A DNA stretch of 64,000 nucleotides from Lingula anatina (Eukaryota; Animalia; Brachiopoda), in assembly GCA_051362555.1 (NCBI GenBank), contig CM120641.1, forward strand, positions 29,332,401-29,396,400, written 5' to 3'. The position numbers and the translations under genes are program-made. The notes below the pieces were generated by a model. It had not been told where the DNA came from and did no database searches. It saw only the letters and a program-made list of their open reading frames with translations. Below are positions 7,105 through 64,000 of this stretch, in pieces. Position 1 is the stretch's first letter, and every line of letters begins with the position of its first letter.

Positions 7105-7143
<39 letters not shown>

Positions 7144-28304: not shown

Positions 28305-28606
28305 TGTTAAAATTCAGCCAGGTTCTATGAAATAACGCATTGTCTTCCCGCTTTCAAATTCCTATAACAGGTAAACTAAACCCATGTACTCTTACCTGCC
28401 TGGACCTCACTCCAAGGACGGTTACCATTATAAAAACAGTCGCTCTTCGTATTCTTGATTCCAGTGTAGTCGCAATACTCCCACAGACCTTGCCACCGCT
28501 CTATCTTACCCGTAACCTTGCCCCATCCTATTGTAGCCACCGCAATAACATTTAAAAGGTTGCTTAAAACAAGAAATATAAGAGCAGACTTCAGGAGAAA
28601 CGACAT
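25240..28606 (-). CDS. PMP22/EMP/claudin-superfamily four-TM protein, 3 exons, ~172 aa
   Basis: Exons 28606-28396, 26687-26541, 25400-25240 are in frame. W..GLWEYC..C signature in the first loop; four hydrophobic segments; YSYGL before TM4; ends DNFDVTR*. Confidence 0.88.
28258..28301. repeat. (TG)n microsatellite
   Basis: Direct reading. Confidence 0.95.
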
Positions 28607-34006: not shown

Positions 34007-34077
34007 TGCATCGGCCGGGAAGCGCACCAGGACCACCCGGGCGGCAGGCGATCATTCTACCACTGAACCACCGATGC
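34007..34077 (-). pseudogene. tRNA-Gly(GCC) pseudogene
   Basis: gcatcggtggttcagtggtagaatgatcgcctgccgcccgggtggtcctggtgcgcttcccggccgatgca matches canonical invertebrate tRNA-Gly(GCC) with several substitutions; B box GGTTCGA is changed to GGTGCGC; T4 lies downstream. Confidence 0.85.
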
Positions 34078-39023: not shown

Positions 39024-41200
39024 CTCATTCTTTTTTGTTACGTTAAAATGATACATACGTTACCGATACATACGTTACCATAAAGCGTGTAAATATTTAT
39101 TTATTCTATTTTCATTGGTTGCCTTTCGTTTTGTGGGCCAACACTTATGTCTCGGTATGTATCGGTAACGTATGTAGATCTTCAAAGATGCATCAATATA
39201 TATATACTTCTATGGTAACGTATGTATCGGTAACGTATGTATCATTTTAACGTAACAAAGAAGAATGAGCGCCGTGAAAACATGCGTGCGCACATATACA
39301 ACGTCGCACGTACAAAGTCGTGACAACAGAGAACAATCAATGAATATAGAAAACAACATGTTCATATTTTTGGTCAAGTATGTATCGGTAACGTATGTAT
39401 CATATGAACAGTTTTCACAGAAGGCAAGAGATCATTTTTGTCCCGTTTTCTTTTATTGTAATGTAACATTAAGACATAGGCCTACATGTACCAAATGGCA
39501 TCGTTCGCCCTCTAATATACCAAAAATTTTAGGCCCCTTCAGCGGCCCCGAACTTTATCTCATGAAATGTGTACAATATATTTAATATCAAACAACAGAT
39601 ACGGGCTCATTGCAGCTTTAATAATATATTCCTTATTTCTAACACATTGGCCATTAGTGCCTGACGCTGTTCCCCTCGTCCATTAGATCGCTGTGCCAAA
39701 CACCACGAAATTCATCGGTTAAATAACTTAAGCTTATTTTTTACATCTATAGATGTAACGAAACGTAGGGTCCGGTATAACAGAGAGTCCGGGGACACTC
39801 TATATTAAGATTATTCAGGGTCCGGAGGGAGATACTGGTCAAGCGGTTACCGGCAACCGACTTGCTTCTCGGGACCGTGCTACGCCCCGGCTGCTTTTAA
39901 GAAGCTCGTGGGCCTCTCGCCAGGGCAGCCACTGAATCGCCTTCGCCTCACAGTGAGAGAGACTTCTGCTTCGCCACGGATAGTCTTGCTCGAGCCTTGC
40001 CCGAGTGTCCGAGCTCCACTGCTCTCCACATATGTATAGTGCCGGCATTTGACTATTCGCTCGCAGCGACCAGATAAAAGTCGAGACGGCCAGGCGTAAA
40101 CCGCATTTTTTATGGCACCGTAACGAGAAGGCAGTTTTGATAAACGTTCAAGGGGCTTCGAAGCGCCTCGGCAGTGGAGGGCAGACCGGGTATTGAGTTT
40201 AACGGTCTTTGCCTGGCCTCCTGCCGGTGAATGGCAACTTGTACAGGTATGTCCCGGCTGAGGATCGAACCCGCGCCCTACCGCACCGGAGGCGAGCACT
40301 CTACCGCTTAAGCCATCCGCCCAGAGACCGCGGCGAGGAGGCAGTCCTGATCGTCGTTCAAGGATCGCCCCAAGCCGCCGTGAACGGCAGACACCTCGTA
40401 CTTTTCGGGGCCCGTAGGCGGAGGACCCCAGAATCGAACGCGGGCCGTCACCTCCTTGGGAGGGCGGCCTCAGCTCTACAGACATGCTGGTCAAGCGGTT
40501 ACCGGCAACCGACTTGCTTCTCGGGACCGTGCTACGCCCGGGCTGCTTTTAAGAAGCTCGGGGGCCTCTCGACCGGGTTGAGCCAAGGGGCACGGAGAGC
40601 CCTCCTCCCTTCGTCGACCGACAGGGAGTTCCCACCGACTTCATTTTTACCGTCAAGGGTCGGTAACGGTGTCGCGCCCCAAGCCGCCGTGAACGGCAGA
40701 CACCTTTTCGGGGCCTGTAGGCGGAGGACCCCAGAATCGAACGCAGACCGTCACCTCCTTGCGAGGGCGGCCTCAGCTCTACGGACATGCTGGTCAAGCG
40801 GTTACCGGCAACCGACTTCCTTCTCGGGACCGTGCTACGCCCCGGCCGCTTTTAAGAAGCTCGTGGGCCTCTCGCCCGGGTAGCCACTGAATCGCCTTCG
40901 CCTCACAGTGAGAGAGACTTCTGCTTCGCCACGGACAGTCTTGCTCGAGCCTTGCCCGAGTGTCCGAGCTCCACTGCTCTCCACATATGTATAGTGCCGG
41001 CATTTGACTATTCGCTCGCAGCGACCAGATAAAAGTCGAGACGGCCAGGCGTAAACCTCATTTTTTATGGCACCGTAACGAGAAGGCAGTTTTGATAAAC
41101 GTTCAAGGGGCTTCGAAGCGCCTCGGCAGTGGAGGGCAGACCGGGTATTGAGTTTAACGGTCTTTGCCTGGCCTCCTGCCGGTGAATGGCAACTTGTACA

Positions 41201-41277
41201 GGTATGTCCCGGCTGAGGATCGAACCCGCGCCCTACCGCACCGGAGGCGAGCACTCTACCGCTTAAGCCATCCGCCC
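41201..41277 (-). ncRNA. tRNA-derived (SINE2-type) Pol III head, one per array unit; not a functional tRNA
   Basis: A box tggcttaagcgg and B box ggttcgatcc at tRNA spacing; anticodon-like loop ctccggt (CCG); acceptor and T stems do not pair; followed by gggacatacc as in invertebrate tRNA-SINE heads. Confidence 0.75.
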
Positions 41278-41603
41278 AGAGACCGCGGCGAGGAGGCAGT
41301 CCTGATCGTCGTTCAAGGGACACCGCCCTAGAGGCCTGATTGGGCTTAACGGTCTCTGCCCGGGTTTCCGATGAACGGCGACTTGCCTCGAACCGCATTT
41401 TATAACGCTTCGGTAATTTGAACCGTATTTTTTTTTTTGTTTTCCGATCATGAGCCGTATTTTTAATGCGTGGCCTGATTTTCTTACCAGACTAGTGCGT
41501 GAACCGTATTTTTTCACGAATTTTTTACGAGAATAATAATAAAAAAATGATAAAGAAAAGCGGTCTTTCAAGACCAGGTTGCGTACAGTGGACATATTTC
41601 CTT

Positions 41604-41665
41604 AAGGCAGACATTTGAAAGATACGTCGCCGGCTCGAGGCCACGCGATCAGCCCAAAGGTATCC
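41604..41665 (-). pseudogene. Internal 18S rRNA fragment (end of the V2 region), fused to the 5' fragment in each unit
   Basis: ggatacctttgggctgatcgcgtggcctcgagccggcgacgtatctttcaaatgtctgcctta versus metazoan 18S ggataactttgggctgatcgca.ggcctcg.gccggcgacgtatctttcaaatgtctgccctatc (recalled consensus). Confidence 0.9.
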
Positions 41666-41669
41666 CGGG

Positions 41670-41721
41670 TATTGCTTAATCTTTGGACAAGCATATGACT
41701 ACTGGCAGAATCGACCAGATA
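41670..41721 (-). pseudogene. 18S rRNA 5'-end fragment (~52 nt), repeated in each array unit
   Basis: Minus strand tatctggtcgattctgccagtagtcatatgcttgtccaaagattaagcaatac versus the conserved 18S start tacctggttgatcctgccagtagtcatatgcttgtctcaaagattaagccatgc. Confidence 0.93.
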
Positions 41722-44700
41722 GCTAGTCGGTCTTTCGGAGCACGCCGGGCACTCGGGCCTCGTCGCTGCGACAGCTATACTTTTTTTTTTTTTATTTTTA
41801 CCCGACGCCCGGGGGACCAGGCCAGTCGGGTTGAGCCAAGGGGCACGGAGAGCCCTCCTCCCTCCGTCGACCGACAGGGAATTCCCACCGACTTCATTTT
41901 TACCGTCAAGGGTCGGTAACGGTGTCGAGCCCCAAGCCGCCGTGAACGGCAGACACCTTTTCGAGGCCTGTAGGCGGAGGACCCCAGAATTGAACGCGGG
42001 CCGTCACCTCCTTGGGAGGGCGGCCTCAGCTCTACAGACATGCTGGTCAAGCGGTTACCGGCAACCGACTTGCTTCTCGGGACCGTGCTACGCCCGGGCT
42101 GCTTTTAAGAAGCTCGGGGGCCTCTCGACCGGGTTCAGCCAAGGGGCACGGAGAGCCCTCCTCCCTTCGTCGACCGACAGGGAGTTCCCACCGACTTCAT
42201 TTTTACCGTCAAGGGTCGGTAACGGTGTCGCGCCCCAAGCCGCCGTGAACGGCAGACACCTCGTACTTTTCGGGGCCCGTAGGCGGAGGACCCCAGAATC
42301 GAACGCGGGCCGTCACCTCCTTGGGAGGGCGCCCTCAGCTCTACAGACATGCTGGTCAAGCGGTTACCGGCAACCGACTTGCTTCTCGGGACCGTGCTAC
42401 GCCCGGGCTGCTTTTAAGAAGCTCGGGGGCCTCTCGACCGGGTTCAGCCAAGGGGCACGGAGAGCCCTCCTCCCTTCGTCGACCGACAGGGAGTTCCCAC
42501 CGACTTCATTTTTACCGTCAAGGGTCGGTAACGGTGTCGCGCCCCAAGCCGCCGTGAACGGCAGACACCTTTTCGGGGCCTGTAGGCGGAGGACCCCAGA
42601 ATCGAACGCGGACCGTCACCTCCTTGCGAGGGCGGCCTCAGCTCTACGGACATGCTGGTCAAGCGGTTACCGGCAACCGACTTCCTTCTCGGGACTGTGC
42701 TACGCCCCGGCCGCTTTTAAGAAGCTCGTGGGCCTCTCGCCCAGGTAGCCACTGAATCGCCTTCGCCTCACAGTGAGAGAGACTTCTGCTTCGCCACGGA
42801 CAGTCTTGCTCGAGCCTTGCCCGAGTGTCCGAGCTCCACTGCTCTCCACATATGTATAGTGCCGGCATTTGACTATTCGCTCGCAGCGACCAGATAAAAG
42901 TCGAGACGGCCAGGCGTAAACCGCATTTTTTATGGCACCGTAACGAGAAGGCAGTTTTGATAAACGTTCAAGGGGCTTCGAAGCGCCTCGGCAGTGGAGG
43001 GCAGACCGGGTATTGAGTTTAACGGTCTTTGCCTGGCCTCCTGCCGGTGAATGGCAACTTGTACAGGTATGTCCCGGCTGAGGATCGAACCCGCGCCCTA
43101 CCGCACCGGAGGCGTGCACTCTACCGCTTAAGCCATCCGCCCAGAGACCGCGGCGAGGAGGCAGTCCTGATCGTCGTTCAAGGGACACCGCCCTAGAGGC
43201 CTGATTGGGCTTAACGGTCTCTGCCCGGGTTTCCGATGAACGGCGACTTGCCTCGAACCGCATTTTATAACGCTTCGGTAATTTGAACCGTATTTTTTTT
43301 TTGTTTTCCGATCATGAGCCGTATTTTTAATGCGTGGACTGATTTTCTTACCAGACTAGTGCGTGAACCGTATTTTTTCACGAATTTTTTACGATAATAA
43401 TAATAAAAAAATGATAAAGAAAAGCGGTCTTTCAAGACCAGGTTGCGTACAGTGGACATATTTCCTTAAGGCAGACATTTGAAAGATACGTCGCCGGCTC
43501 GAGGCCACGCGATCAGCCCAAAGGTATCCCGGGTATTGCTTAATCTTTGGACAAGCATATGACTACTGGCAGAATCGACCAGATAGCTAGTCGGTCTTTC
43601 GGAGCACGCCGGGCACTCGGGCCTCGTCGCTGCGACAGCTATACTTTTTTTTTTTTTTTTTTACCCGACGCCCGGGGGACCAGGCCAGTCGGGTTGAGCC
43701 AAGGGGCACGGAGAGCCCTCCTCCCTCCGTCGACCGACAGGGAATTCCCACCGACTTCATTTTTACCGTCAAGGGTCGGTAACGGTGTCGAGCCCCAAGC
43801 CGCCGTGAACGGCAGACACCTTTTCGGGGCCTGTAGGCGGAGGACCCCAGAATTGAACGCGGGCCGTCACCTCCTTGGGAGGGCGGCCTCAGCTCTACAG
43901 ACATGCTGGTCAAGCGGTTACCGGCAACCGACTTGCTTCTCGGGACCGTGCTACGCCCGGGCTGCTTTTAAGAAGCTCGGGGGCCTCTCGACCGGGTTCA
44001 GCCAAGGGGCACGGAGAGCCCTCCTCCCTTCGTCGACCGACAGGGAGTTCCCACCGACTTCATTTTTACCGTCAAGGGTCGGTAACGGTGTCGCGCCCCA
44101 AGCCGCCGTGAACGGCAGACACCTCGTACTTTTCGGGGCCCGTAGGCGGAGGACCCCAGAATCGAACGCGGGCCGTCACCTCCTTGGGAGGGCGCCCTCA
44201 GCTCTACAGACATGCTGGTCAAGCGGTTACCGGCAACCGACTTGCTTCTCGGGACCGTGCTACGCCCGGGCTGCTTTTAAGAAGCTCGGGGGCCTCTCAA
44301 CCGGGTTGAACCAAGGGGCACGGAGAGCCCTCCTCCCTTCGTCGACCGACAGGGAGTTCCCACCGACTTCATTTTTACCGTCAAGGGTCGGTAACGGTGT
44401 CGCGCCTCAAGCCGCCGTGAACGGCAGACACCTTTTCGGGGCCTGTAGGCGGAGGACCCCAGAATCGAACGCGGACCGTCACCTCCTTGCGAGGGCGGCC
44501 TCAGCTCTACGGACATGCTGGTCAAGCGGTTACCGGCAACCGACTTCCTTCTCGGGACCGTGCAACGCCCCGGCTGCTTTTAAGAAGCTCGTGGGCCTCT
44601 CGCCCGGGCAGCCACTGAATCGCCTTCGCCTCACAGTGAGAGAGACTTCTGCTTCGCCACGGACAGTCTTGCTCGAGCCTTGCCCGAGTGTCCGAGCTCC

Positions 44701-47700
44701 ACTGCTCTCCACATATGTATAGTGCCGGCATTTGACTGTTCGCTCGCAGCGACCAGATAAAAGTCGAGACGGCCAGGCGTAAACCGCATTTTTTATGGCA
44801 CCGTAACGAGAAGGCAGTTTTGATAAACGTTCAAGGGGCTTCGAAGCGCCTCGGCAGTGGAGGGCAGACCGGGTATTGAGTTTAACGGTCTTTGCCTGGC
44901 CTCCTGCCGGTGAATGGCAACTTGTACAGGTATGTCCCGGCTGAGGATCGAACCCGCGCCCTACCGCACCGGAGGCGAGCACTCTACCGCTTAAGCCATC
45001 CGCCCAGAGACCGCGGCGAGGAGGCAGTCCTGATCGTCGTTCAAGGGACACCGCCCTAGAGGCCTGATTGGGCTTAACGGTCTCTGCCCGGGTTTCCGAT
45101 GAACGGCGACTTGCCTCGAACCGCATTTTATAACGCTTCGGTAATTTGAACCGTATTTTTTTTTTTGTTTTCCGATCATGAGCCGTATTTTTAATGCGTG
45201 GCCTGATTTTCTTACCAGACTAGTGCGTGAACCGTATTTTTTCACGAATTTTTTACGAGAATAATAATAAAAAAATGATAAAGAAAAGCGGTCTTTCAAG
45301 ACCAGGTTGCGTACAGTGGACATATTTCCTTAAGGCAGACATTTGAAAGATACGTCGCCGGCTCGAGGCCACGCGATCAGCCCAAAGGTATCCCGGGTAT
45401 TGCTTAATCTTTGGACAAGCATATGACTACTGGCAGAATCGACCAGATAGCTAGTCGGTCTTTCGGAGCACGCCGGGCACTCGGGCCTCGTCGCTGCGAC
45501 AGCTATACTTTTTTTTTTTTTATTTTTACCCGACGCCCGGGGGACCAGGCCAGTCGGGTTGAGCCAAGGGGCACGGAGAGCCCTCCTCCCTCCGTCGACC
45601 GACAGGGAATTCCCACCGACTTCATTTTTACCGTCAAGGGTCGGTAACGGTGTCGAGCCCCAAGCCGCCGTGAACGGCAGACACCTTTTCGGGGCCTGTA
45701 GGCGGAGGACCCCAGAATTGAACGCGGGCCGTCACCTCCTTGGGAGGGCGGCCTCAGCTCTACAGACATGCTGGTCAAGCGGTTACCGGCAACCGACTTG
45801 CTTCTCGGGACCGTGCTACGCCCGGGCTGCTTTTAAGAAGCTCGGGGGCCTCTCGACCGGGTTGAGCCAAGGGGCACGGAGAGCCCTCCTCCCTTCGTCG
45901 ACCGACAGGGAGTTCCCACCGACTTCATTTTTACCGTCAAGGGTCGGTAACGGTGTCGCGCCCCAAGCCGCCGTGAACGGCAGACACCTCGTACTTTTCG
46001 GGGCCCGTAGGCGGAGGACCCCAGAATCGAACGCGGGCCGTCACCTCCTTGGGAGGGCGCCCTCAGCTCTACAGACATGCTGGTCAAGCGGTTACCGGCA
46101 ACCGACTTGCTTCTCGGGACCGTGCTACGCCCGGGCTGCTTTTAAGAAGCTCGGGGGCCTCTCGACCGGGTTCAGCCAAGGGGCACGGAGAGCCCTCCTC
46201 CCTTCGTCGACCGACAGGGAGTTCCCACCGACTTCATTTTTAACGTCAAGGGTCGGTAACGGTGTCGCGCCCCAAGCCGCCGTGAACGGCAGACACCTCG
46301 TACTTTTCGGGGCCCGTAGGCGGAGGACCCCAGAATCGAACGCGGGCCGTCACCTCCTTGGGAGGGCGGCCTCAGCTCTATAGACATGCTGGTCAAGCGG
46401 TTACCGGCAACCGACTTGCTTCTCGGGACCGTGCTACGCCCGGGCTGCTTTTAAGAAGCTCGGGGGCCTCTCGACCGGGTTGAGCCAAGGGGCACGGAGA
46501 GCCCTCCTCCCTTCGTCGACCGACAGGGAGTTCCCACCGACTTCATTTTTACCGTCAAGGGTCGGTAACGGTGTCGCGCCCCAAGCCGCCGGGAACGGCA
46601 GACACCTCGTACGTTTCGGGGCCCGTTGGCGGAGGACCCCAGAATCGAACGCGGACCGTCACCTCCTTGCGAGGGCGGCCTCAGCTCTACGGACATGCTG
46701 GTCAAGCGGTTACCGGCAACCGACTTGCTTCTCGGGACCGTGCTACGCCCCGGCTGCTTTTAAGAAGCTCGTGGGCCTCTCGCCCGGGCAGCCACTGAAT
46801 CGCCTTCGCCTCACGGTGAGAGAGACTTCTGCTTCGCCACGGATAGTCTTGCTCAAGCCTTGCCCGAGTGTCCGAGCTCCACTGCTCTCCACATATGTAT
46901 AGTGCCGGCATTTGACTATTCGCTCGCAGCGACCAGATAAAAGTCGAGACGGCCAGGCGTAAACCGCATTTTTTATGGCACCGTAACGAGAAGGCAGTTT
47001 TGATAAACGTTCAAGGGGCTTCGAAGCGCCTCGGCAGTGGAGGGCAGACCGGGTATTGAGTTTAACGGTCTTTGCCTGGCCTCCTGTCGGTGAATGGCAA
47101 CTTTTACAGGTATGTCCCGGCTGAGGATCGAACCCGCGCCCTACCGCACCGGAGGCGAGCACTCTACCGCTTAAGCCATCCGCCCAGAGACCGCGGCGAG
47201 GAGGCAGTCCTGATCGTCGTTCAAGGGACACCGCCCTAGAGGCCTGATTGGGCTTAACGGTCTCTGCCCGGGTTTCCGATGAACGGCGACTTGCCTCGAA
47301 CCGCATTTTATAACGCTTCGGTAATTTGAACCGTATTTTTTTTTTTGTTTTCCGATCATGAGCCGTATTTTTAATGCGTGGCCTGATTTTCTTACCAGAC
47401 TAGTGCGTGAACCGTATTTTTTCACGAATTTTTTACGAGAATAATAATAAAAAAATGATAAAGAAAAGCGGTCTTTCAAGACCAGGTTGCGTACAGTGGA
47501 CATATTTCCTTAAGGCAGACATTTGAAAGATACGTCGCCGGCTCGAGGCCACGCGATCAGCCCAAAGGTATCCCGGGTATTGCTTAATCTTTGGACAAGC
47601 ATATGACTACTGGCAGAATCGACCAGATAGCTAGTCGGTCTTTCGGAGCACGCCGGGCACTCGGGCCTCGTCGCTGCGACAGCTATACATTTTTTTTTTA

Positions 47701-50700
47701 TTTTTACCCGACGCCCGGGGGACCAGGCCAGTCGGGTTGAGCCAAGGGGCACGGAGAGCCCTCCTCCCTCCGTCGACCGACAGGGAATTCCCACCGACTT
47801 CATTTTTACCGTCAAGGGTCGGTAACGGTGTCGAGCCCCAAGCCGCCGTGAACGGCAGACACCTTTTCGGGGCCTGTAGGCGGAGGACCCCAGAATTGAA
47901 CGCGGGCCGTCACCTCCTTGGGAGGGCGGCCTCAGCTCTACAGACATGCTGGTCAAGCGGTTACCGGCAACCGACTTGCTTCTCGGGACCGTGCTACGCC
48001 CGGGCTGCTTTTAAGAAGCTCGGGGGCCTCTCGACCGGGTTCAGCCAAGGGGCACGGAGAGCCCTCCTCCCTTCGTCGACCGACAGGGAGTTCCCACCGA
48101 CTTCATTTTTACCGTCAAGGGTCGGTAACGGTGTCGCGCCCCAAGCCGCCGTGAACGGCAGACACCTCGTACTTTTCGGGGCCCGTAGGCGGAGGACCCC
48201 AGAATCGAACGCGGGCCGTCACCTCCTTGGGAGGGCGCCCTCAGCTCTACAGACATGCTGGTCAAGCGGTTACCGGCAACCGACTTGCTTCTCGGGACCG
48301 TGCTACGCCCGGGCTGCTTTTAAGAAGCTCGGGGGCCTCTCGACCGGGTTGAGCCAAGGGGCACGGAGAGCCCTCCTCCCTTCGTCGACCGACAGGGAGT
48401 TCCCACCGACTTCATTTTTACCGTCAAGGGTCGGTAACGGTGTCGCGCCCCAAGCCGCCGTGAACGGCAGACACCTTTTCGGGGCCTGTAGGCGGAGGAC
48501 CCCAGAATCGAACGCGGACCGTCACCTCCTTGCGAGGGCGGCCTCAGCTCTACGGACATGCTGGTCAAGCGGTTACCGGCAACCGACTTGCTTCTCGGGA
48601 CCGTGCTACGCCCCGGCTGCTTTTAAGAAGCTCGTGGGCCTCTCGCCCGGGCAGCCACTGAATCGCCTTCGCCTCACGGTGAGAGAGACTTCTGCTTCGC
48701 CACGGATAGTCTTGCTCAAGCCTTGCCCGAGTGTCCGAGCTCCACTGCTCTCCACATATGTATAGTGCCGGCATTTGACTATTCGCTCGCAGCGACCAGA
48801 TAAAAGTCGAGACGGCCAGGCGTAAACCGCATTTTTTATGGCACCGTAACGAGAAGGCAGTTTTGATAAACGTTCAAGGGGCTTCGAAGCGCCTCGGCAG
48901 TGGAGGGCAGACCGGGTATTGAGTTTAACGGTCTTTGCCTGGCCTCCTGTCGGTGAATGGCAACTTTTACAGGTATGTCCCGGCTGAGGATCGAACCCGC
49001 GCCCTACCGCACCGGAGGCGAGCACTCTACCGCTTAAGCCATCCGCCCAGAGACCGCGGCGAGGAGGCAGTCCTGATCGTCGTTCAAGGGACACCGCCCT
49101 AGAGGCCTGATTGGGCTTAACGGTCTCTGCCCGGGTTTCCGATGAACGGCGACTTGCCTCGAACCGCATTTTATAACGCTTCGGTAATTTGAACCGTATT
49201 TTTTTTTTTGTTTTCCGATCATGAGCCGTATTTTTAATGCGTGGCCTGATTTTCTTACCAGACTAGTGCGTGAACCGTATTTTTTCACGAATTTTTTACG
49301 AGAATAATAATAAAAAAATGATAAAGAAAAGCGGTCTTTCAAGACCAGGTTGCGTACAGTGGACATATTTCCTTAAGGCAGACATTTGAAAGATACGTCG
49401 CCGGCTCGAGGCCACGCGATCAGCCCAAAGGTATCCCGGGTATTGCTTAATCTTTGGACAAGCATATGACTACTGGCAGAATCGACCAGATAGCTAGTCG
49501 GTCTTTCGGAGCACGCCGGGCACTCGGGCCTCGTCGCTGCGACAGCTATACTTTTTTTTTTTTTATTTTTACCCGACGCCCGGGGGACCAGGCCAGTCGG
49601 GTTGAGCCAAGGGGCACGGAGAGCCCTCCTCCCTCCGTCGACCGACAGGGAATTCCCACCGACTTCATTTTTACCGTCAAGGGTCGGTAACGGTGTCGAG
49701 CCCCAAGCCGCCGTGAACGGCAGACACCTTTTCGAGGCCTGTAGGCGGAGGACCCCAGAATTGAACGCGGGCCGTCACCTCCTTGGGAGGGCGGCCTCAG
49801 CTCTACAGACATGCTGGTCAAGCGGTTACCGGCAACCGACTTGCTTCTCGGGACCGTGCTACGCCCGGGCTGCTTTTAAGAAGCTCGGGGGCCTCTCGAC
49901 CGGGTTCAGCCAAGGGGCACGGAGAGCCCTCCTCCCTTCGTCGACCGACAGGGAGTTCCCACCGACTTCATTTTTACCGTCAAGGGTCGGTAACGGTGTC
50001 GCGCCCCAAGCCGCCGTGAACGGCAGACACCTCGTACTTTTCGGGGCCCGTAGGCGGAGGACCCCAGAATCGAACGCGGGCCGTCACCTCCTTGGGAGGG
50101 CGCCCTCAGCTCTACAGACATGCTGGTCAAGCGGTTACCGGCAACCGACTTGCTTCTCGGGACCGTGCTACGCCCGGGCTGCTTTTAAGAAGCTCGGGGG
50201 CCTCTCGACCGGGTTCAGCCAAGGGGCACGGAGAGCCCTCCTCCCTTCGTCGACCGACAGGGAGTTCCCACCGACTTCATTTTTACCGTCAAGGGTCGGT
50301 AACGGTGTCGCGCCCCAAGCCGCCGTGAACGGCAGACACCTTTTCGGGGCCTGTAGGCGGAGGACCCCAGAATCGAACGCGGACCGTCACCTCCTTGCGA
50401 GGGCGGCCTCAGCTCTACGGACATGCTGGTCAAGCGGTTACCGGCAACCGACTTCCTTCTCGGGACTGTGCTACGCCCCGGCCGCTTTTAAGAAGCTCGT
50501 GGGCCTCTCGCCCAGGTAGCCACTGAATCGCCTTCGCCTCACAGTGAGAGAGACTTCTGCTTCGCCACGGACAGTCTTGCTCGAGCCTTGCCCGAGTGTC
50601 CGAGCTCCACTGCTCTCCACATATGTATAGTGCCGGCATTTGACTATTCGCTCGCAGCGACCAGATAAAAGTCGAGACGGCCAGGCGTAAACCGCATTTT

Positions 50701-53700: not shown

Positions 53701-56700
53701 TTTACCGTCAAGGGTCGGTAACGGTGTCGCGCCCCAAGCCGCCGTGAACGGCAGACACCTCGTACTTTTCGGGGCCCGTAGGCGGAGGACCCCAGAATCG
53801 AACGCGGGCCGTCACCTCCTTGGGAGGGCGCCCTCAGCTCTACAGACATGCTGGTCAAGCGGTTACCGGCAACCGACTTGCTTCTCGGGACCGTGCTACG
53901 CCCGGGCTGCTTTTAAGAAGCTCGGGGGCCTCTCGACCGGGTTCAGCCAAGGGGCACGGAGAGCCCTCCTCCCTTCGTCGACCGACAGGGAGTTCCCACC
54001 GACTTCATTTTTAACGTCAAGGGTCGGTAACGGTGTCGCGCCCCAAGCCGCCGTGAACGGCAGACACCTCGTACTTTTCGGGGCCCGTAGGCGGAGGACC
54101 CCAGAATCGAACGCGGGCCGTCACCTCCTTGGGAGGGCGGCCTCAGCTCTATAGACATGCTGGTCAAGCGGTTACCGGCAACCGACTTGCTTCTCGGGAC
54201 CGTGCTACGCCCGGGCTGCTTTTAAGAAGCTCGGGGGCCTCTCGACCGGGTTGAGCCAAGGGGCACGGAGAGCCCTCCTCCCTTCGTCGACCGACAGGGA
54301 GTTCCCACCGACTTCATTTTTACCGTCAAGGGTCGGTAACGGTGTCGCGCCCCAAGCCGCCGGGAACGGCAGACACCTCGTACGTTTCGGGGCCCGTTGG
54401 CGGAGGACCCCAGAATCGAACGCGGACCGTCACCTCCTTGCGAGGGCGGCCTCAGCTCTACGGACATGCTGGTCAAGCGGTTACCGGCAACCGACTTGCT
54501 TCTCGGGACCGTGCTACGCCCCGGCTGCTTTTAAGAAGCTCGTGGGCCTCTCGCCCGGGCAGCCACTGAATCGCCTTCGCCTCACGGTGAGAGAGACTTC
54601 TGCTTCGCCACGGATAGTCTTGCTCAAGCCTTGCCCGAGTGTCCGAGCTCCACTGCTCTCCACATATGTATAGTGCCGGCATTTGACTATTCGCTCGCAG
54701 CGACCAGATAAAAGTCGAGACGGCCAGGCGTAAACCGCATTTTTTATGGCACCGTAACGAGAAGGCAGTTTTGATAAACGTTCAAGGGGCTTCGAAGCGC
54801 CTCGGCAGTGGAGGGCAGACCGGGTATTGAGTTTAACGGTCTTTGCCTGGCCTCCTGTCGGTGAATGGCAACTTTTACAGGTATGTCCCGGCTGAGGATC
54901 GAACCCGCGCCCTACCGCACCGGAGGCGAGCACTCTACCGCTTAAGCCATCCGCCCAGAGACCGCGGCGAGGAGGCAGTCCTGATCGTCGTTCAAGGGAC
55001 ACCGCCCTAGAGGCCTGATTGGGCTTAACGGTCTCTGCCCGGGTTTCCGATGAACGGCGACTTGCCTCGAACCGCATTTTATAACGCTTCGGTAATTTGA
55101 ACCGTATTTTTTTTTTTGTTTTCCGATCATGAGCCGTATTTTTAATGCGTGGCCTGATTTTCTTACCAGACTAGTGCGTGAACCGTATTTTTTCACGAAT
55201 TTTTTACGAGAATAATAATAAAAAAATGATAAAGAAAAGCGGTCTTTCAAGACCAGGTTGCGTACAGTGGACATATTTCCTTAAGGCAGACATTTGAAAG
55301 ATACGTCGCCGGCTCGAGGCCACGCGATCAGCCCAAAGGTATCCCGGGTATTGCTTAATCTTTGGACAAGCATATGACTACTGGCAGAATCGACCAGATA
55401 GCTAGTCGGTCTTTCGGAGCACGCCGGGCACTCGGGCCTCGTCGCTGCGACAGCTATACATTTTTTTTTTATTTTTACCCGACGCCCGGGGGACCAGGCC
55501 AGTCGGGTTGAGCCAAGGGGCACGGAGAGCCCTCCTCCCTCCGTCGACCGACAGGGAATTCCCACCGACTTCATTTTTACCGTCAAGGGTCGGTAACGGT
55601 GTCGAGCCCCAAGCCGCCGTGAACGGCAGACACCTTTTCGGGGCCTGTAGGCGGAGGACCCCAGAATTGAACGCGGGCCGTCACCTCCTTGGGAGGGCGG
55701 CCTCAGCTCTACAGACATGCTGGTCAAGCGGTTACCGGCAACCGACTTGCTTCTCGGGACCGTGCTACGCCCGGGCTGCTTTTAAGAAGCTCGGGGGCCT
55801 CTCGACCGGGTTCAGCCAAGGGGCACGGAGAGCCCTCCTCCCTTCGTCGACCGACAGGGAGTTCCCACCGACTTCATTTTTACCGTCAAGGGTCGGTAAC
55901 GGTGTCGCGCCCCAAGCCGCCGTGAACGGCAGACACCTCGTACTTTTCGGGGCCCGTAGGCGGAGGACCCCAGAATCGAACGCGGGCCGTCACCTCCTTG
56001 GGAGGGCGCCCTCAGCTCTACAGACATGCTGGTCAAGCGGTTACCGGCAACCGACTTGCTTCTCGGGACCGTGCTACGCCCGGGCTGCTTTTAAGAAGCT
56101 CGGGGGCCTCTCGACCGGGTTGAGCCAAGGGGCACGGAGAGCCCTCCTCCCTTCGTCGACCGACAGGGAGTTCCCACCGACTTCATTTTTACCGTCAAGG
56201 GTCGGTAACGGTGTCGCGCCCCAAGCCGCCGTGAACGGCAGACACCTTTTCGGGGCCTGTAGGCGGAGGACCCCAGAATCGAACGCGGACCGTCACCTCC
56301 TTGCGAGGGCGGCCTCAGCTCTACGGACATGCTGGTCAAGCGGTTACCGGCAACCGACTTGCTTCTCGGGACCGTGCTACGCCCCGGCTGCTTTTAAGAA
56401 GCTCGTGGGCCTCTCGCCCGGGCAGCCACTGAATCGCCTTCGCCTCACGGTGAGAGAGACTTCTGCTTCGCCACGGATAGTCTTGCTCAAGCCTTGCCCG
56501 AGTGTCCGAGCTCCACTGCTCTCCACATATGTATAGTGCCGGCATTTGACTATTCGCTCGCAGCGACCAGATAAAAGTCGAGACGGCCAGGCGTAAACCG
56601 CATTTTTTATGGCACCGTAACGAGAAGGCAGTTTTGATAAACGTTCAAGGGGCTTCGAAGCGCCTCGGCAGTGGAGGGCAGACCGGGTATTGAGTTTAAC

Positions 56701-59700
56701 GGTCTTTGCCTGGCCTCCTGTCGGTGAATGGCAACTTTTACAGGTATGTCCCGGCTGAGGATCGAACCCGCGCCCTACCGCACCGGAGGCGAGCACTCTA
56801 CCGCTTAAGCCATCCGCCCAGAGACCGCGGCGAGGAGGCAGTCCTGATCGTCGTTCAAGGGACACCGCCCTAGAGGCCTGATTGGGCTTAACGGTCTCTG
56901 CCCGGGTTTCCGATGAACGGCGACTTGCCTCGAACCGCATTTTATAACGCTTCGGTAATTTGAACCGTATTTTTTTTTTGTTTTCCGATCATGAGCCGTA
57001 TTTTTAATGCGTGGCCTGATTTTCTTACCAGACTAGTGCGTGAACCGTATTTTTTCACGAATTTTTTACGAGAATAATAATAAAAAAATGATAAAGAAAA
57101 GCGGTCTTTCAAGACCAGGTTGCGTACAGTGGACATATTTCCTTAAGGCAGACATTTGAAAGATACGTCGCCGGCTCGAGGCCACGCGATCAGCCCAAAG
57201 GTATCCCGGGTATTGCTTAATCTTTGGACAAGCATATGACTACTGGCAGAATCGACCAGATAGCTAGTCGGTCTTTCGGAGCACGCCGGGCACTCGGGCC
57301 TCGTCGCTGCGACAGCTATACATTTTTTTTTTATTTTTACCCGACGCCCGGGGGACCAGGCCAGTCGGGTTGAGCCAAGGGGCACGGAGAGCCCTCCTCC
57401 CTCCGTCGACCGACAGGGAATTCCCACCGACTTCATTTTTACCGTCAAGGGTCGGTAACGGTGTCGAGCCCCAAGCCGCCGTGAACGGCAGACACCTTTT
57501 CGGGGCCTGTAGGCGGAGGACCCCAGAATTGAACGCGGGCCGTCACCTCCTTGGGAGGGCGGCCTCAGCTCTACAGACATGCTGGTCAAGCGGTTACCGG
57601 CAACCGACTTGCTTCTCGGGACCGTGCTACGCCCGGGCTGCTTTTAAGAAGCTCGGGGGCCTCTCGACCGGGTTCAGCCAAGGGGCACGGAGAGCCCTCC
57701 TCCCTTCGTCGACCGACAGGGAGTTCCCACCGACTTCATTTTTACCGTCAAGGGTCGGTAACGGTGTCGCGCCCCAAGCCGCCGTGAACGGCAGACACCT
57801 CGTACTTTTCGGGGCCCGTAGGCGGAGGACCCCAGAATCGAACGCGGGCCGTCACCTCCTTGGGAGGGCGCCCTCAGCTCTACAGACATGCTGGTCAAGC
57901 GGTTACCGGCAACCGACTTGCTTCTCGGGACCGTGCTACGCCCGGGCTGCTTTTAAGAAGCTCGGGGGCCTCTCGACCGGGTTGAGCCAAGGGGCACGGA
58001 GAGCCCTCCTCCCTTCGTCGACCGACAGGGAGTTCCCACCGACTTCATTTTTACCGTCAAGGGTCGGTAACGGTGTCGCGCCCCAAGCCGCCGTGAACGG
58101 CAGACACCTTTTCGGGGCCTGTAGGCGGAGGACCCCAGAATCGAACGCGGACCGTCACCTCCTTGCGAGGGCGGCCTCAGCTCTACGGACATGCTGGTCA
58201 AGCGGTTACCGGCAACCGACTTGCTTCTCGGGACCGTGCTACGCCCGGGCTGCTTTTAAGAAGCTCGTGGGCCTCTCGCCCCGGCAGCCACTGAATCGCC
58301 TTCGCCTCACAGTGAGAGAGACTTCTGCTTCGCCACGGATAGTCTTGCTCGAGCCTTGCCCGAGTGTCCGAGCTCCACTGCTCTCCACATATGTATAGTG
58401 CCGGCATTTGAGTATTCGCTCGCAGCGACCAGATAAAAGTCGAGACGGCCAGGCGTAAACCGCATTTTTTTATGGCACCGTAACGAGAAGGCAGTTTTGA
58501 TAAACGTTCAAGGGGCTTCGAAGCGCCTCGGCAGTGGAGGGCCGACCGGGTATTGAGTTTAACGGTCTTTGCCTGGCCTCCTGTCGGTGAATGGCAACTT
58601 TTACAGGTATGTCCCGGCTGAGGATCGAACCCGTGCCCTACCGCACCGGAGACGAGCACTCTACCGCTTAAGCCATCCGCCCAGAGACCGCGGCGAGGAG
58701 GCAGTCCTGATCGTCGTTCAAGGGACATCGCCCTAGAGGCCCGATTGGGCTTAACGGTCTCTGCCCGGGTCTCCGGTAAACGGCGACTTGCACGAACCGC
58801 ATTTTATAACGCTTCGGTAATTTGAACCGTATTTCTTTTTTGTTTTCCGATCATGAGCCGTATTTTTAATGCGTGGCCTGATTTTCTTACCAGACTAGTG
58901 CGTGAACCGTATTTTTTCACGAAATTTTTACGAGAATAGTAATAAAAAAATGATAAAGAAAAGCGGTCTTTCAAGACCAGGTTGCGTGCAGTGGACATAT
59001 TTCCTTAAGGCAGACATTTGAAAGATACGTTGCCGGCTCGAGGCCACGCGATCAGCCCAAAGGTATCCCGGGTATTGCTTAATCTTTGGTCAAGCATATG
59101 ACTACTGGCAGAATCGACCAGTTGGCTAGTCGGTCTTTCGGAGCACGCCGGGCACTCGGGCCTCGTCGCTGCGACAGCTATACTTTTTTTTTTTTTTTAC
59201 CCGACGCCCGGGGGACCAGGCCAGTCGGGTTGAGCCAAGGGGCACGGAGAGCCCTCCTCCCTCCGTCGACCGACAGGGAGTTCCCACCAACTTCACCGTC
59301 AAGGGTCGGTAAGGGTGCCGCGCCCCAAGCCGCCGTGAACGGCAGACACCTCGTATCTTCAAGGGACCATAGGCGGTGGACCCCAGAATCGAACGCTGAC
59401 AGTCACCTCCTTGCGAGGGCGGCCTCAGCTCTACAGACATGCTGGTCAAGCGGTTACCGGCAACCGACTTGCTTCTCGGGACCGTGCTACGCCCGGGCTG
59501 CTTTTAAGAAGCTCGGGGGCCTCTCGACCGGGTTGAGCCAAGGGGCACGGAGAGCCCTCCTCCCTTCGTCGACCGACAGGGAGTTCCCACCGACTTCATT
59601 TTTACCGTCAAGGGTCGGTAAGGGTGTCGCGCCCCAAGCCGACGTGAACGGCAGACACCTCGTACTTTTCGGGGCCCGTAGGCGGAGGACCCCAGAATCG

Positions 59701-62700
59701 AACGCGGGCCTTCACCTCCTTTGGAGGGCGGCCTCAGCTCTACGGACATGCTGGTCAAGCGGTTACCGGCAACCGACTAGCTTCTCGGGACCGTGCTACG
59801 CCCGGGCTGCTTTTAAGAAGCTCGGGGGCCTCTCGACCGGGTTGAGCCAAGGGGCACGGAGAGCCCTCCTCCCTTCGTCGACCGACAGGGAGTTCCCGCC
59901 GACTTCATTTTTACCGTCAAGGGTCGGTAAGGGTGTCGCGCCCCAAGCCGCCGTGAACGGCAGACACCTCGTACTTTTCGGGGCCCGTAGGCGGAGGACC
60001 CCAGAATCGAACGCGGGCCTTCACCTCCTTTGGAGGGCGGCCTCAGCTCTACGGACATGCTGGTCAAGCGGTTACCGGCAACCGACTAGCTTCTCGGGAC
60101 CGTGCTACGCCCGGGCTGCTTTTAAGAAGCTCGGGGGCCTCTCGACCGGGTTGAGCCAAGGGGCACGGAGAGCCCTCCTCCCTTCGTCGACCGACAGGGA
60201 GTTCCCACCGACTTCATTTTTACCGTCAAGGGTCGGTAAGGGTGTCGCGCCCCAAGCCGCCGTGAACGGCAGACACCTCGTACTTTTCGGGGCCCGTAGG
60301 CGGAGGACCCCAGATTCGAACGCGGACCGTCACCTCCTTGCGAGGGAGGCCTCAGCTCTACGGACATGCTGGTCAAGCGGTTACCGTCAACCGACTTGCT
60401 TCTCGGGACCGTGCTACGCCCGGGCTGCTTTTAAGAAGCTCGTGGGCCTCTCGCCCCGGCAGCCACTGAATCGCCTTCGCCTCACAGTGAGAGAGACTAC
60501 TGCTTCGCCACGGATAGTCTTGCTCGAGCCTTGCCCGAGTGTCCGAGCTCCACTGCTCTCCACATATGTATAGTGCCGGCATTTGACTATTCGCTCGCAG
60601 CGACCAGATAAAAGTCGAGACGGCCAGGCGTAAACCGCATTTTTTTTATGGCACCGTAACGAGAAGGCAGTTTTGATAAACGTTCAAGGGGCTTCGAAGC
60701 GCCTCGGCAGTGGAGGGCCGACCGGGTATTGAGTTTAACGGTCTTTGCCTGGCCTCCTGTCGGTGAATGGCAACTTTTACAGGTATGTCCCGGCTGAGGA
60801 TCGAACCCGTGCCCTACCGCACCGGAGACGAGCACTCTACCGCTTAAGCCATCCGCCCAGAGACCGCGGCGAGGAGGCAGTCCTGATCGTCGTTCAAGGG
60901 ACATCGCCCTAGAGGCCCGATTGGGCTTAACGGTCTCTGCCCGGGTCTCCGGTGAACGGCGACTTGCACGAACCGCATTTTATAACGCTTCGGTAATTTG
61001 AACCGTATTTCTTTTTTGTTTTCCGATCATGAGCCGTATTTTTAATGCGTGGCCTGATTTTCTTACCAGACTAGTGCGTGAACCGTATTTTTTCACGAAA
61101 TTTTTACGAGAATAGTAATAAAAAAATGATAAAGAAAAGCGGTCTTTCAAGACCAGGTTGCGTGCAGTGGACATATTTCCTTAAGGCAGACATTTGAAAG
61201 ATACGTTGCCGGCTCGAGGCCACGCGATCAGCCCAAAGGTATCCCGGGTATTGCTTAATCTTTGGTCAAGCATATGACTACTGGCAGAATCGACCAGATA
61301 GCTAGTCGGTCTTTCGGAGCACGCCGGGCACTCGGGCCTCGTCGCTGCGACAGCTATACTTTTTTTTTTTTTTTTACCCGACGCCCGGGGGACCAGGCCA
61401 GTCGGGTTGAGCCAAGGGGCACGGAGAGCCCTCCTCCCTCCGTCGACCGACAGGGAGTTCCCACCAACTTCACCGTCAAGGGTCGGTAAGGGTGCCGCGC
61501 CCCAAGCCGCCGTGAACGGCAGACACCTCGTATCTTCAAGGGACCATAGGCGGTGGACCCCAGAATCGAACGCTGACAGTCACCTCCTTGCGAGGGCGGC
61601 CTCAGCTCTACAGACATGCTGGTCAAGCGGTTACCGGCAACCGACTTGCTTCTCGGGACCGTGCTACGCCCGGGCTGCTTTTAAGAAGCTCGGGGGCCTC
61701 TCGACCGGGTTGAGCCAAGGGGCACGGAGAGCCCTCCTCCCTTCGTCGACCGACATGGAGTTCCCGCCGACTTCATTTTTACCGTCAAGGGTCGGTAAGG
61801 GTGTCGCGCCCCAAGCCGCCGTGAACGGCAGACACCTCGTACTTTTCGGGGCCCGTAGGCGGAGGACCCCAGATTTGAAAGCGGACCGTCACCTCCTTGC
61901 GAGGGAGGCCTCAGCTCTACGGACATACTGGTCAAGCGGTTACCGGCAACCGACTTGCTTCTCGGGACCGTGCTACGCCCGGGCTGCTTTTAAGAAGCTC
62001 GGGGGCCTCTCGACCGGGTTGAGCCAAGGGGCACGGAGAGCCCTCCTCCCTTCGTCGACCGACAGGGAGTTCCCACCGACTTCATTTTTACCGTCAAGGG
62101 TCGGTAAGGGTGTCGCGCCCCAAGCCGCCGTGAACGGCAGACACCTCGTACTTTTCGGGGCCCGTAGGCGGAGGACCCCAGATTCGAACGCGGACCGTCA
62201 CCTCCTTGCGAGGGAGGCCTCAGCTCTACGGACATGCTGGTCAAGCGGTTACCGGCAACCGACTTGCTTCTCGGGACCGTGCTACGCCCGGGCTGCTTTT
62301 AAGAAGCTCGTGGGCCTCTCGCCCCGGCAGCCACTGAATCGCCTTCGCCTCACAGTGAGAGAGACTTCTGCTTCGCCACGGATAGTCTTGCTCGAGCCTT
62401 GCCCGAGTGTCCGAGCTCCACTGCTCTCCACATATGTATAGTGCCGGCATTTGACTATTCGCTCGCAGCGACCAGATAAAAGTCGAGACGGCCAGGCGTA
62501 AACCGCATTTTTTTATGGCACCGTAACGAGAAGGCAGTTTTGATAAACGTTCAAGGGGCTTCGAAGCGCCTCGGCAGTGGAGGGCCGACCGGGTATTGAG
62601 TTTAACGGTCTTTGCCTGGCCTCCTGTCGGTGAATGGCAACTTTTACAGGTATGTCCCGGCTGAGGATCGAACCCGTGCCCTACCGCACCGGAGACGAGC

Positions 62701-63124
62701 ACTCTACCGCTTAAGCCATCCGCCCAGAGACCGCGGCGAGGAGGCAGTCCTGATCGTCGTTCAAGGGACATCGCCCTAGAGGCCTGATTGGGCTTAACGG
62801 TCTCTGCCCGGGTCTCCGGTGAACGGCGACTTGCACGAACCGCATTTTATAACGCTTCGGTAATTTGAACCGTATTTTTTTTTTTTTTTTTTTTGTTTTC
62901 CGATCATGAGCCGTATTTTTAATGCGTGGCCTGATTTTCTTACCAGACTAGTGCGTGAACCGTATTTTTTCACGAAATTTTTACGAGAATAGTAATAAAA
63001 AAATGATAAAGAAAAGCGGTCTTTCAAGACCAGGTTGCGTGCAGTGGACATATTTCCTTAAGGCAGACATTTGAAAGATACGTCGCCGGCTCGAGGCCAC
63101 GCGATCAGCCCAAAGGTATCCCGG

Positions 63125-64000
63125 TGTAACATGAAAATCTGACTCCCATGAAAATCTGACTCCCCCAGTCAGATTTTCATAATGAAATTCTGACTCCCCC
63201 CATGAAAATTTGACTCCCCCTCCACATAACTTCATAAATCTTATTTTATTTGAGTATATGACTGTGATCTTGTAGTATGTAAAATGGAGGATTCATTGGC
63301 ACTTTTTTTTAGTTTGCGGGTTAATATTTTCATGAAAAAACTAGTAAATTAAAAATGTGCACTTAACCGCCCATTGTCTCCCCTATGAAAAAGCTATTTA
63401 TATATGATATTGGATGATCATTTCTACATCTTTCCTTTAAATTAACTTTATGAAGATTATGTTGGAAATATTTGAGTTTGATGGTAAACTATTGGGTGAA
63501 AAAACTAAATAAACAAGAAAAATAGAAAATTAAAAATGTGCATTTTATCACCCAATAACTCCCCTATGAAAAAGCTATCTATTAAATATTTGATGATCAT
63601 TTCAACACCTTTCCTTAACTTTTACTTTATGAAGATTTTATTGGATATATTTGAAAGTTTGATGGTAAAATATTGGGTGAAAAAACAAAACAAATAAAAA
63701 ATAAATAAAAAAAAAACATGAAAAATAAGAAAATTAAAAACGTGCATTTTATCATCCAATAACTCCCTATGAAAAAGCTATCTATTTAATATCTGATGAT
63801 CATTTCAACACCTTTCCTTTTAAGACACTTTATGAAAACTATATTGGTATATTGGAAATATTAAAAGTTTGATGATAAAATAGTGAGTGAAATAATGAAA
63901 AAGAAATCATGAAAATCTTCATTTTTATACTCATGAGATTTGGACTCCCATGAAGAAAAAGACCTATTTTATATTCAGTCACCATACCAATGTTTTCCAC
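63125..64000. mobile_element. AT-rich repetitive element starting ccgg|tgtaacatgaaaatctgactccc, with short terminal subrepeats and ~180-200-bp internal tandem repeats; runs off the window
   Basis: Abrupt switch from array sequence after ccgg (63121-63124); catgaaaatctgactccc repeated several times; ctccc(c)tatgaaaaagctat at ~63380, ~63560, ~63763. Confidence 0.65.

Follow-up and report, generated by a model that had tools for sequence, protein, structure and literature searches.

We identified in a 64,000-nucleotide stretch of the Lingula anatina genome (hereafter the window) a 23-kb head-to-tail array of about 12 near-identical copies, and this array is likely to be a displaced fragment of the front end of 45S rDNA that decayed, was multiplied by unequal exchange within a single locus and is probably functionless. 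The whole array spans 39835..63124 on the minus strand, as delimited by self-BLAST and read contigs (left edge at 39828 by the former and at 39835 by the latter), and it consists of 11 complete units of 1.86 to 2.18 kb each plus partial ends. Its GC content is about 0.58 versus 0.29 to 0.47 in the left flank, and its CpG observed/expected ratio is 1.09. The start motif and the tRNA-like head each occur 13 times, the internal 18S piece 12 times and the 18S 5′ piece 11 times, all of them recurring in the order that the original prediction had given for a tandem array.

Start-to-start spacing is 1862 to 1868 bp in eight units and 2175 to 2180 bp in three, and a unit of 1863 bp from start motif to start motif (42862..44724, minus strand) was taken as representative. 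At the left end of the array (39835..40996, minus strand) there is one deletion-bearing unit, 955 bp from start to start, whose internal deletion has brought a subrepeat and module B together at 40363/40366, and then the truncated last unit. The units are also arranged in a four-unit higher-order repeat of 7771 bp (40366..60150, no strand assigned), whose offset copies share 8002 identical bases. Unit cores differ from each other by 0 to 24 letters per 940 bp (0 to 2.5% apart), and the two right-end units show 17 to 24 differences per 940 bp from the remaining ones. Open reading frames of 176 to 491 codons run across the GC-rich subrepeats but are absent from some units, and we took them as chance. 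A claim that the units are rich in hairpins found no support beyond GC content, as the folding z-scores of 11 segments, from −1.74 to +1.14, were unremarkable.

The original prediction derived the unit from the host rDNA spacer and 5′ETS and called for its non-18S parts to be compared with host rDNA. In favor of the prediction, most of these parts match read contigs at a depth of at least 200 times that of the unique flank (deep contigs), which we infer to be working rDNA. The homologues cover the start region, the promoter-proximal part, the subrepeats, the leader and modules A and B, with 7 to 14% substitutions (9/133, 26/304, 12/101, 7/79, 19/139 and 12/127). Relative to the flank, the depth of deep contigs is at least 202 in run X1 and 302 to 377 in run X3, and that of array-type contigs is 12.5 to 14.7 and 13.8 to 19.9, respectively. 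The array copies are more alike to each other (0 to 24 differences in 940 bp) than to deep contigs, and of 37 checked sites that distinguish the array from rDNA, 26 are fixed in every array copy, indicating that divergence preceded amplification, as had been proposed. RNA reads carrying deep-contig letters are oriented like the 18S reads, and their cover is confined to the start-to-18S span. Because of the deep matches, and because this RNA in the 18S sense stops at the start, the unit likely represents proximal spacer, Pol I promoter, whole 5′ETS and two decayed 18S stubs.

The deep contigs could belong instead to a large related satellite elsewhere, of which the array would be a small outlier. 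Among the contigs listed, none runs from the leader through the full 18S or joins it to a long 18S stretch, the longest relevant piece entering the 18S by 8 nt, as a satellite would predict. However, the deep-letter RNA is co-oriented with 18S and extends from the start motif up to the 18S start, depth climbs continuously from the leader into the 18S 5′ end in both X1 and X4, and a depth of 300 to 380 times the flank is compatible with rDNA copy numbers. We regard a related satellite as highly improbable.

The likely Pol I start, together with the first 115 nt of the 5′ETS, lies at 44602..44724 (minus strand) in the representative unit, as assigned via the equivalent copy at 42739-42861, which differs from deep contigs in 9 of 133 letters. 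RNA cover stops between 42828 and 42852, i.e., 10 to 30 nt inside that copy, and this supports the candidate start of the original prediction. Two bases at 42853 are absent from deep contigs. Since the start site in run X20, which bears the same species label, has the array version at a depth of 768, this difference may be ancestral rather than damage; most of the unit has no cover in X20, and such blanks denote absence of cover only. Upstream of the start is the promoter-proximal spacer (42862..42935, minus strand), of which 44 nt (42892-42935) are skipped by deep contigs.

Downstream of the start, three GC-rich 5′ETS subrepeats of 303 to 309 bp each lie at 43681..44601 (minus strand) and have both deep homologues and RNA reads. 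Each unit contains three of them, or four in 3 units, in agreement with the number predicted, and their variants are position specific. A hairpin, an A tract and a leader of about 60 nt follow (43586..43680, minus strand), matched by an X4 contig at 43578-43881 with a depth of 549. Pairing of this leader with the start of the 5′ETS is possible, the predicted duplex having a free energy of −48.1 kcal/mol (13 of 500 shuffles were as good).

The leader abuts an 18S rRNA 5′ stub (43535..43585, minus strand) aligned to positions 1 to 52 of the Rfam SSU model. It scores only 15.7 bits (E of 0.2), carries four substitutions and one deletion relative to the upper-case consensus letters and is altered at universal 18S letters. 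The internal 18S stub of 60 nt (43470..43529, minus strand) has no Rfam match but is covered by 125 and 286 real 18S reads, which continue past its two ends (43470 and 43529) into sequence unrelated to the array; one fixed difference from host 18S reads was listed, at 43508. With E values of up to 1 admitted, a whole-window Rfam search gave no hit inside the array. Since each unit contains only about 110 nt of 18S and Rfam searches of the array gave no match to 5.8S or 28S, mature rRNA cannot be made from it; the complete 18S-5.8S-28S coding span is missing, and the array does not qualify as a functional 45S rDNA unit.

Next to the internal stub is a hairpin with a T-rich segment (43353..43469, minus strand), at depths of 1714 to 1779 in X1 and 29 to 43 in X4. 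These are array-level depths, and no deep contig matched with at least 80% identity under a filter that can drop records, so the proposed retention of rDNA terminators was not borne out. The AT-rich spacer with a repeated motif (43243..43352, minus strand) matches deep contigs at 43315-43352, and its remaining 72 nt (43243-43314) are skipped by them. Two spacer subrepeats complete the unit, namely module B (43146..43242, minus strand), which is 73 to 81% like module A, and module A (42936..43064, minus strand), whose deep homologue has a 14-nt gap. An HDV-like ribozyme in module B was considered and rejected. The HDV-like fold is a nested double pseudoknot with P1, P1.1, P3 and P2; a P1/P3/P1.1 pattern occurs here (20 of 1000 shuffles) but the best P2 is 2 bp, no ribozyme in the array was matched by Rfam, and a read-contig variant of module B with a loose end at 40322 also disrupts the ribozyme-like loop motif.

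Between the two modules lies a degenerate tRNA-like element (43074..43142, minus strand) with an A box at 43135, a B box at 43091 and a broken T arm; the first T4 downstream of it is at 42899. The Rfam hit to the corresponding head in the next unit (44937-45005) scores 17.3 bits, under the gathering cut-off of 29, and ARAGORN called no tRNA. The A-box/B-box pair is intact in all 13 copies, and shuffling produced such a pair in 2 of 2000 trials; the units are too young (0 to 2.5% apart), however, for intact boxes to show selection. Judging from the read contigs, the 5′ half of the element probably sits in the host rDNA spacer as well, and the element was probably inherited from that spacer rather than added later.

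The element could otherwise be the head of a dispersed tRNA-derived SINE inserted between the spacer modules after displacement, in which case the monomer would be a chimera made by Pol III-driven retroposition. Such an insertion would account for the array-level depth (14.6) in X4 over 43033-43158, for the array-level depth of the B-box half in four runs (e.g., 1653 in X1 and 377 in X3 at 40274) and for the depth of about 1500 in X20 on the A-box part without module B. Blanks in X4 are unreliable, though, because this run also misses the deep 18S match. Moreover, the X3 depth at 40319 is 8208, approximately one deep contig (7770) plus the array (377), the X3 loose end at 40322 runs on into the module-B variant, deep cover in X5 extends up to 40241, and no SINE body, 3′ tail, target-site duplication or dispersed full copy was seen in the window by eye or by BLAST. 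We consider a SINE chimera very unlikely. An 18-bp match to the 3′ end of the head at 4627-4644, a candidate SINE copy, was rejected on inspection. Thus, in the proposal of an rDNA unit stripped of its coding sequence with the regulatory spacer kept, the origin from spacer and 5′ETS and the candidate start are supported, while the terminators and the tRNA-derived cassette as a separate add-on are not.

The array was found in DNA runs of three studies (2015 to 2025) at about 13 to 20 times the depth of the unique flank. This estimate of copy number, which the original prediction had asked for, makes the array look like one small locus and does not bear out the large family that the word macrosatellite would imply. 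Its flanks are repeat-rich and non-rDNA, with ordinary genes nearby. We give next to no credence to a partial assembly artefact, chiefly in the 7771-bp block duplication, or to a misplaced array. The 8002 identical bases would fit one, as would the array-flank junctions, including the left one, that are unbridged among the contigs listed, and the presence in X5 of the unit at a depth of about 600 without the window's flank letters at 39674-39706. Yet the array/flank depth ratios of 12.5 to 19.9 are no lower than the word multiplicity in the window (7 to 11.7), and X1 and X3, from different studies, both contain the exact flank (0 differences in 213 to 214 bp) along with array-type contigs.

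A displaced rDNA fragment might still be transcribed, as the promoter, the A and B boxes and the ETS end-pairing are all still present in the units. In RNA reads, array letters were found in 0 of 48 at 43782, 0 of 38 at 43853, 0 of 33 at 43968, 0 of 18 in the start region and 1 of 411 at 43508 in the internal 18S stub, and 2 of 147 and 2 of 383 reads were at least 99% alike to the array. The reads examined amount to about 6% of two runs, of which one was poly(A) selected, and the animals sampled may lack the array; the power of these counts is low, with P(0/51) of 0.04 to 0.18 at a copy share of 3 to 6% and equal activity per copy. RNA depth over 42865-43452 was at most 0.71 in both runs. The run index named no RNA run containing the array, a blank to which we give no weight.

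It is unlikely, in our judgment, that the array is an active natural cluster of rDNA minigenes. Were it so, Pol I would start in each unit and yield a short-lived 5′ETS-18S-stub RNA, Pol III would transcribe about 245 nt, from the tRNA-like element as far as the T4 at 42899, and the array would bind Pol I and early pre-rRNA processing factors as a polymorphic decoy or small pseudo-NOR, with the host spacer itself harboring a tRNA-like Pol III element about 230 to 290 bp upstream of the start. Each unit does retain the entire stretch, including the start site, over which the deep homologue is transcribed, and the 13 intact box pairs, the possible ETS end-pairing, the recurrence of the array in three studies over 2015 to 2025 and the CpG ratio of 1.09 point the same way. 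Opposed to this are the ETS reads without array letters (0 of 48 at the best site), the RNA depth of at most 0.71, the 13 to 20 copies versus some hundreds of rDNA units, a promoter region that differs by 44 nt and 2 nt, units too young for box conservation to mean selection, and the lack of most of the unit in X20. The functions originally suggested (selfish mini-rDNA, pseudo-NOR or Pol I factor sink, and source of rRNA-complementary RNA) are likewise unsupported, with no array-type RNA seen in these low-powered counts and 13 to 20 copies set against some hundreds; for a pseudo-NOR, 23 kb at a depth ratio of 13 to 20 compares with a megabase scale. The array is probably without function at present, a recently amplified and largely silent relic.

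For this relic, we propose four steps. The piece first copied out would have begun about 500 bp ahead of the Pol I start and run through the 5′ETS into the early 18S; the homology is observed, and the identity of the deep contigs is presumed. The 18S between the stubs was lost, with the deletion join at 43530-43534, substitutions were fixed before amplification, and a 117-bp segment unlike present rDNA was either gained or kept. The piece was then multiplied to 12 to 13 units, the latest event being duplication of a four-unit block; this pattern is seen in the repeats, and unequal crossing-over is the probable mechanism, since it would leave the greatest divergence or truncation in the end units, where both are indeed seen. 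Lastly, the array would make little or no stable RNA, a step on which the RNA counts bear weakly.

Several known systems resemble the array in part, as far as the accessible portions of the reports go. Tomato satellites derived from the rDNA spacer (Jo et al. 2009, PMC2679016), in which one short spacer subrepeat has ended up in many copies, are likewise tandem outside canonical rDNA, devoid of rRNA coding sequence and homogenized in their subrepeats, whereas each unit here keeps the promoter region, the whole 5′ETS and two 18S stubs in about 13 copies. The 240 copies of a variant IGS at Drosophila centromere 3 (Chang et al. 2019, PMC6516634) are also an animal spacer variant duplicated off the rDNA, of single origin and amid mobile elements; they are short, lack ETS and 18S, and are centromeric and CENP-A bound, and no hint of a centromere was found for the Lingula array. 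Displaced human rDNA pseudogenes (PMC5381670) and Bembidion rDNA-like repeats (10.1101/2020.01.03.894527) illustrate that fragments leave the cluster, diverge and can multiply, but the accessible text describes the former as degraded near-full units, in contrast to a young, homogeneous 5′ regulatory end beside genes, and the latter as thousands of copies of ITS/28S parts, in contrast to a small array of that end. Pseudo-NORs, which are synthetic megabase-scale arrays of UBF sites without promoters, and neo-NORs with full coding units (McStay 2016, PMC4973289) similarly place rDNA regulatory sequence outside the NOR; the present array is natural, 23 kb long and has a promoter region without a coding unit. 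SINE28 and the 5S-headed SINE3 (PMC10946416) also combine an rRNA fragment with a Pol III-type element but are dispersed retroposons as presented there; the array copies are tandem, with the tRNA-like element upstream of the Pol I start and the 18S stubs either over 1 kb downstream of that element or, in the next unit, upstream of it. Four further sources (PMC3036644, 10.1101/690198, 10.1101/2023.02.20.529178 and PMC12054243) provide background and, in their accessible parts, no direct counterpart. In the literature searched, the main text of mostly open-access papers, we found no report of natural tandem promoter-ETS-18S-stub arrays or of any animal whose proximal spacer holds a tRNA-like element.

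The array is thus best read as a variant of known rDNA-derived satellites, differing from the described spacer satellites in having the promoter region, the full leader and the 18S start in every unit, and in what each unit keeps it resembles a laboratory-made Pol I minigene. As a relic, it would be a frozen earlier version of the species' rDNA spacer and 5′ETS. From roughly 6 to 7 changes in the 110 nt of 18S stubs, we infer a drift of about 5% in the array itself; the spacer difference of 7 to 14% exceeds this value and would measure the turnover of working rDNA by concerted evolution. If the array were active after all, the titration of Pol I factors could be tested on it in nature, and the minigene reading would mean that an animal rDNA promoter natively includes a Pol III element. 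A more useful lead may be the tRNA-like A/B-box element that the host spacer probably carries shortly before the Pol I start. In practice, the array is a source of spurious 18S variants as well.

Self-BLAST of the window revealed a single array on the minus strand, running from ~39835 to 63124, with a GC content of 0.58 versus 0.29 to 0.47 in the background. Exact searches located 13 start motifs, 13 tRNA-like heads, 12 internal 18S pieces, and 11 18S 5′ pieces in the within-unit order given by the original prediction, and the two analyses confirmed its description of the array as a whole. Units with three subrepeats are 1,862 to 1,868 bp long and those with four are 2,175 to 2,180 bp, and a deleted unit of 955 bp lies at the left end. 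Outside the subrepeats, 940-bp cores were compared across 11 units: nine differed among themselves at 0 to 10 positions, versus 17 to 24 between these and the two right-end units. Subrepeat variants are specific to their position within the unit, and a four-unit block of 7,771 bp is duplicated in the array (8,002 identical bases). The 18S 5′ piece (43535 to 43585 in a representative unit) corresponds to Rfam SSU positions 1 to 52 (15.7 bits; E value, 0.2), departing from the consensus at five upper-case positions, in one case through a deletion. Folding predictions indicated a possible duplex between the two ends of the array 5′ETS (−48.1 kcal/mol; equalled by 13 of 500 shuffles), segment folding being otherwise ordinary for the composition. 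Part of module B (43146 to 43222) shows some elements of an HDV-ribozyme-like pattern: P1, the P3 loop, and P1.1 are present (20 of 1,000 shuffles), and P2 is lacking.

The array was then compared with contigs of 5 of 12 sequencing runs and RNA reads of 2 of 9. Between 0.24 and 0.65 of the unit words were present in nine DNA runs from three studies under one species label, and the words were almost lacking in three other listed runs (DNA or unknown type). The unique flank (39578 to 39791) was found without difference in DNA runs X1 (depth, 116.7) and X3 (25.7). Array-type contigs reached 12.5 to 14.7 times the flank depth in X1, possibly the assembly's own source, and 13.8 to 19.9 times in X3, contig depth not being a copy number; word multiplicity in the window is 7 to 11.7. 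These ratios fit a single locus of roughly 12 to 20 units, not a large family or over-assembly. No contig among those listed bridges the left junction. In run X5, the unit is present but the window's flank letters are not, and most of the unit is missing from X20. The 18S deletion join coincides with the right array edge, and no target-site duplication is visible at the array, whose flanks are repeat-rich on both sides. On the right (63125 to 63910), 17-bp direct/inverted repeats start at the array edge and are followed by a diverged 181-bp tandem repeat.

At 80% likeness, far deeper contigs matched the start region, subrepeats, leader, 18S start, modules A (42936 to 43064) and B (43146 to 43242), and part of the AT-rich spacer. 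Their depths were ~24,000 each in X1, where the values appear to be capped (at least 202 times the flank), 7,770 to 9,689 in X3 (302 to 377 times), and 281 to 806 in X4, versus 14.6 to 17 for array-type contigs in the last. The array differs from them by 7 to 14% substitutions plus gaps, and they lack 2 bases at 42853, 44 at 42892 to 42935, and 72 at 43243 to 43314. The start-site difference need not be damage, since X20 contigs at depth 768 share the array's form. A retained terminator, proposed for the segment at 43353 to 43469, was not supported, depth there being array-level only at this likeness. No contig was shown with the leader plus a long 18S stretch. Deep contigs also hold a second, shortened start region fused to a subrepeat (seen at 42831 to 42879 and at 39943 to 40011; depth, 525 in X4 and 7,770 in X3), as expected for spacer-promoter duplicates of host rDNA. 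At 39858 to 40100, X20, under the same species label, matched the deep rDNA letters over ~50 bp only and carried array-type start-region letters at depth 160 to 770; the run may come from a cryptic species, or from a population that has diverged, in which a related relic is present. Other X1 and X4 contigs share the 18S stretch at 43467 to 43529 with different flanks or a variant of the neighbouring sequence, which suggests that further pieces of 18S, or a divergent copy of it, lie elsewhere.

RNA reads from both runs carry deep-contig letters in the orientation of real 18S reads. They cover 43579 to 43989 and 42739 to somewhere in 42828 to 42852, 15 reads of RNA run X11 connect a subrepeat to the start region, and 42865 to 43452 is practically empty (depth, ≤0.71). 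This is the pattern of a 5′ETS starting at the candidate start motif, as had been proposed, and from it we infer that the deep contigs are working rDNA. Such deep, transcribed homologues support the predicted origin of the array from host rDNA. Three insertion variants among the reads at 43820 suggest that the host ETS has diverged subrepeats of its own. At fixed sites, the array letter was found in 0/48 (43782), 0/38 (43853), 0/33 (43968), 0/18 (start region), and 1/411 (43508) reads; at 43811 it was seen in 7/39 X11 reads, yet it is common to a deep X4 contig. With the array at 3 to 6% of copies, the probability of 0 of 51 is 0.04 to 0.18; the sample was ~6% of each run, short Pol III products are undersampled, and donors may lack the array. 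An abundant stable array transcript is excluded in the sampled RNA runs, and low activity is still compatible with the data. Function of the array is unsupported on this low-power test, and we regard its units as improbable active minigenes. By the criteria applied, the array is not a working rDNA unit, and its size disqualifies it as a pseudo-NOR.

The tRNA-like element (43074 to 43142) scores 17.3 bits and has a broken T arm; A and B boxes occur in 13/13 copies (2 of 2,000 shuffles). It is similar to a degenerate tRNA at 34007 to 34077 (minus strand; Rfam, 37.7 bits; no ARAGORN call), which we take to resemble tRNA-Gly(GCC). X4 gave no deep match over the element and also misses the 18S stub. 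At the left copy, X3 depth is 8,208 at 40319, near the sum of deep contig and array (7,770 + 377), and bin means are consistent with a deep contig over ~40278 to 40323. A loose end at 40322, tabulated without depth, runs on into a module-B variant, and deep cover in X5 extends to 40241. By this depth arithmetic, together with the loose end and the X5 cover, the host spacer probably includes the 5′ half of the element. The B-box half had no deep match in any run examined and is thus either altered in present rDNA or missing from it. The working host spacer probably has a tRNA-like element that precedes the Pol I start by ~230 to 290 bp, an arrangement for which our literature search found no description.

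Of 40 listed difference rows, 37 were mapped to all copies (three array-level rows were excluded and none added), and 26 of the 37 are fixed across every copy. This bears out the prediction that divergence preceded amplification: the monomer diverged first and was amplified in tandem later. Array growth likely proceeded by unequal exchange, to which the subrepeat position variants, the four-unit block, and the diverged or truncated ends point, going by established satellite evolution. The array belongs with known rDNA spacer satellites, displaced pseudogenes, and mobilised rDNA-like repeats, exemplified by tomato spacer satellites (PMC2679016), Drosophila centromeric IGS (PMC6516634), displaced rDNA pseudogenes (PMC5381670), and rDNA-like repeats mobilised in beetles (10.1101/2020.01.03.894527). 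No natural promoter-ETS-18S-stub array was found in the open-licence literature searched.

Genes near the array include a single-exon SMIM12/UPF0767 gene (22608 to 22910, plus strand) and a MULE-type transposon, with MULE/SWIM transposase exons at 2687 to 8596 (plus strand; Pfam PF10551, PF21056, PF15299, and PF04434). Exon-like ORFs at 28376 to 32308 (minus strand), of which one contains transmembrane-like stretches and several resemble coiled coils, had no Pfam match at an E value of 0.01; the nearest stops ~7.5 kb short of the array and shares its orientation. A long, near-perfect inverted repeat (35498 to 35651), which scored as mir-2756 below the cutoff, is likely a MITE. A 2.3-kb foldback element (36671 to 38999) has inverted arms of 1.1 kb at 83% identity and tandem repeats of 39 to 40 bp at its ends.
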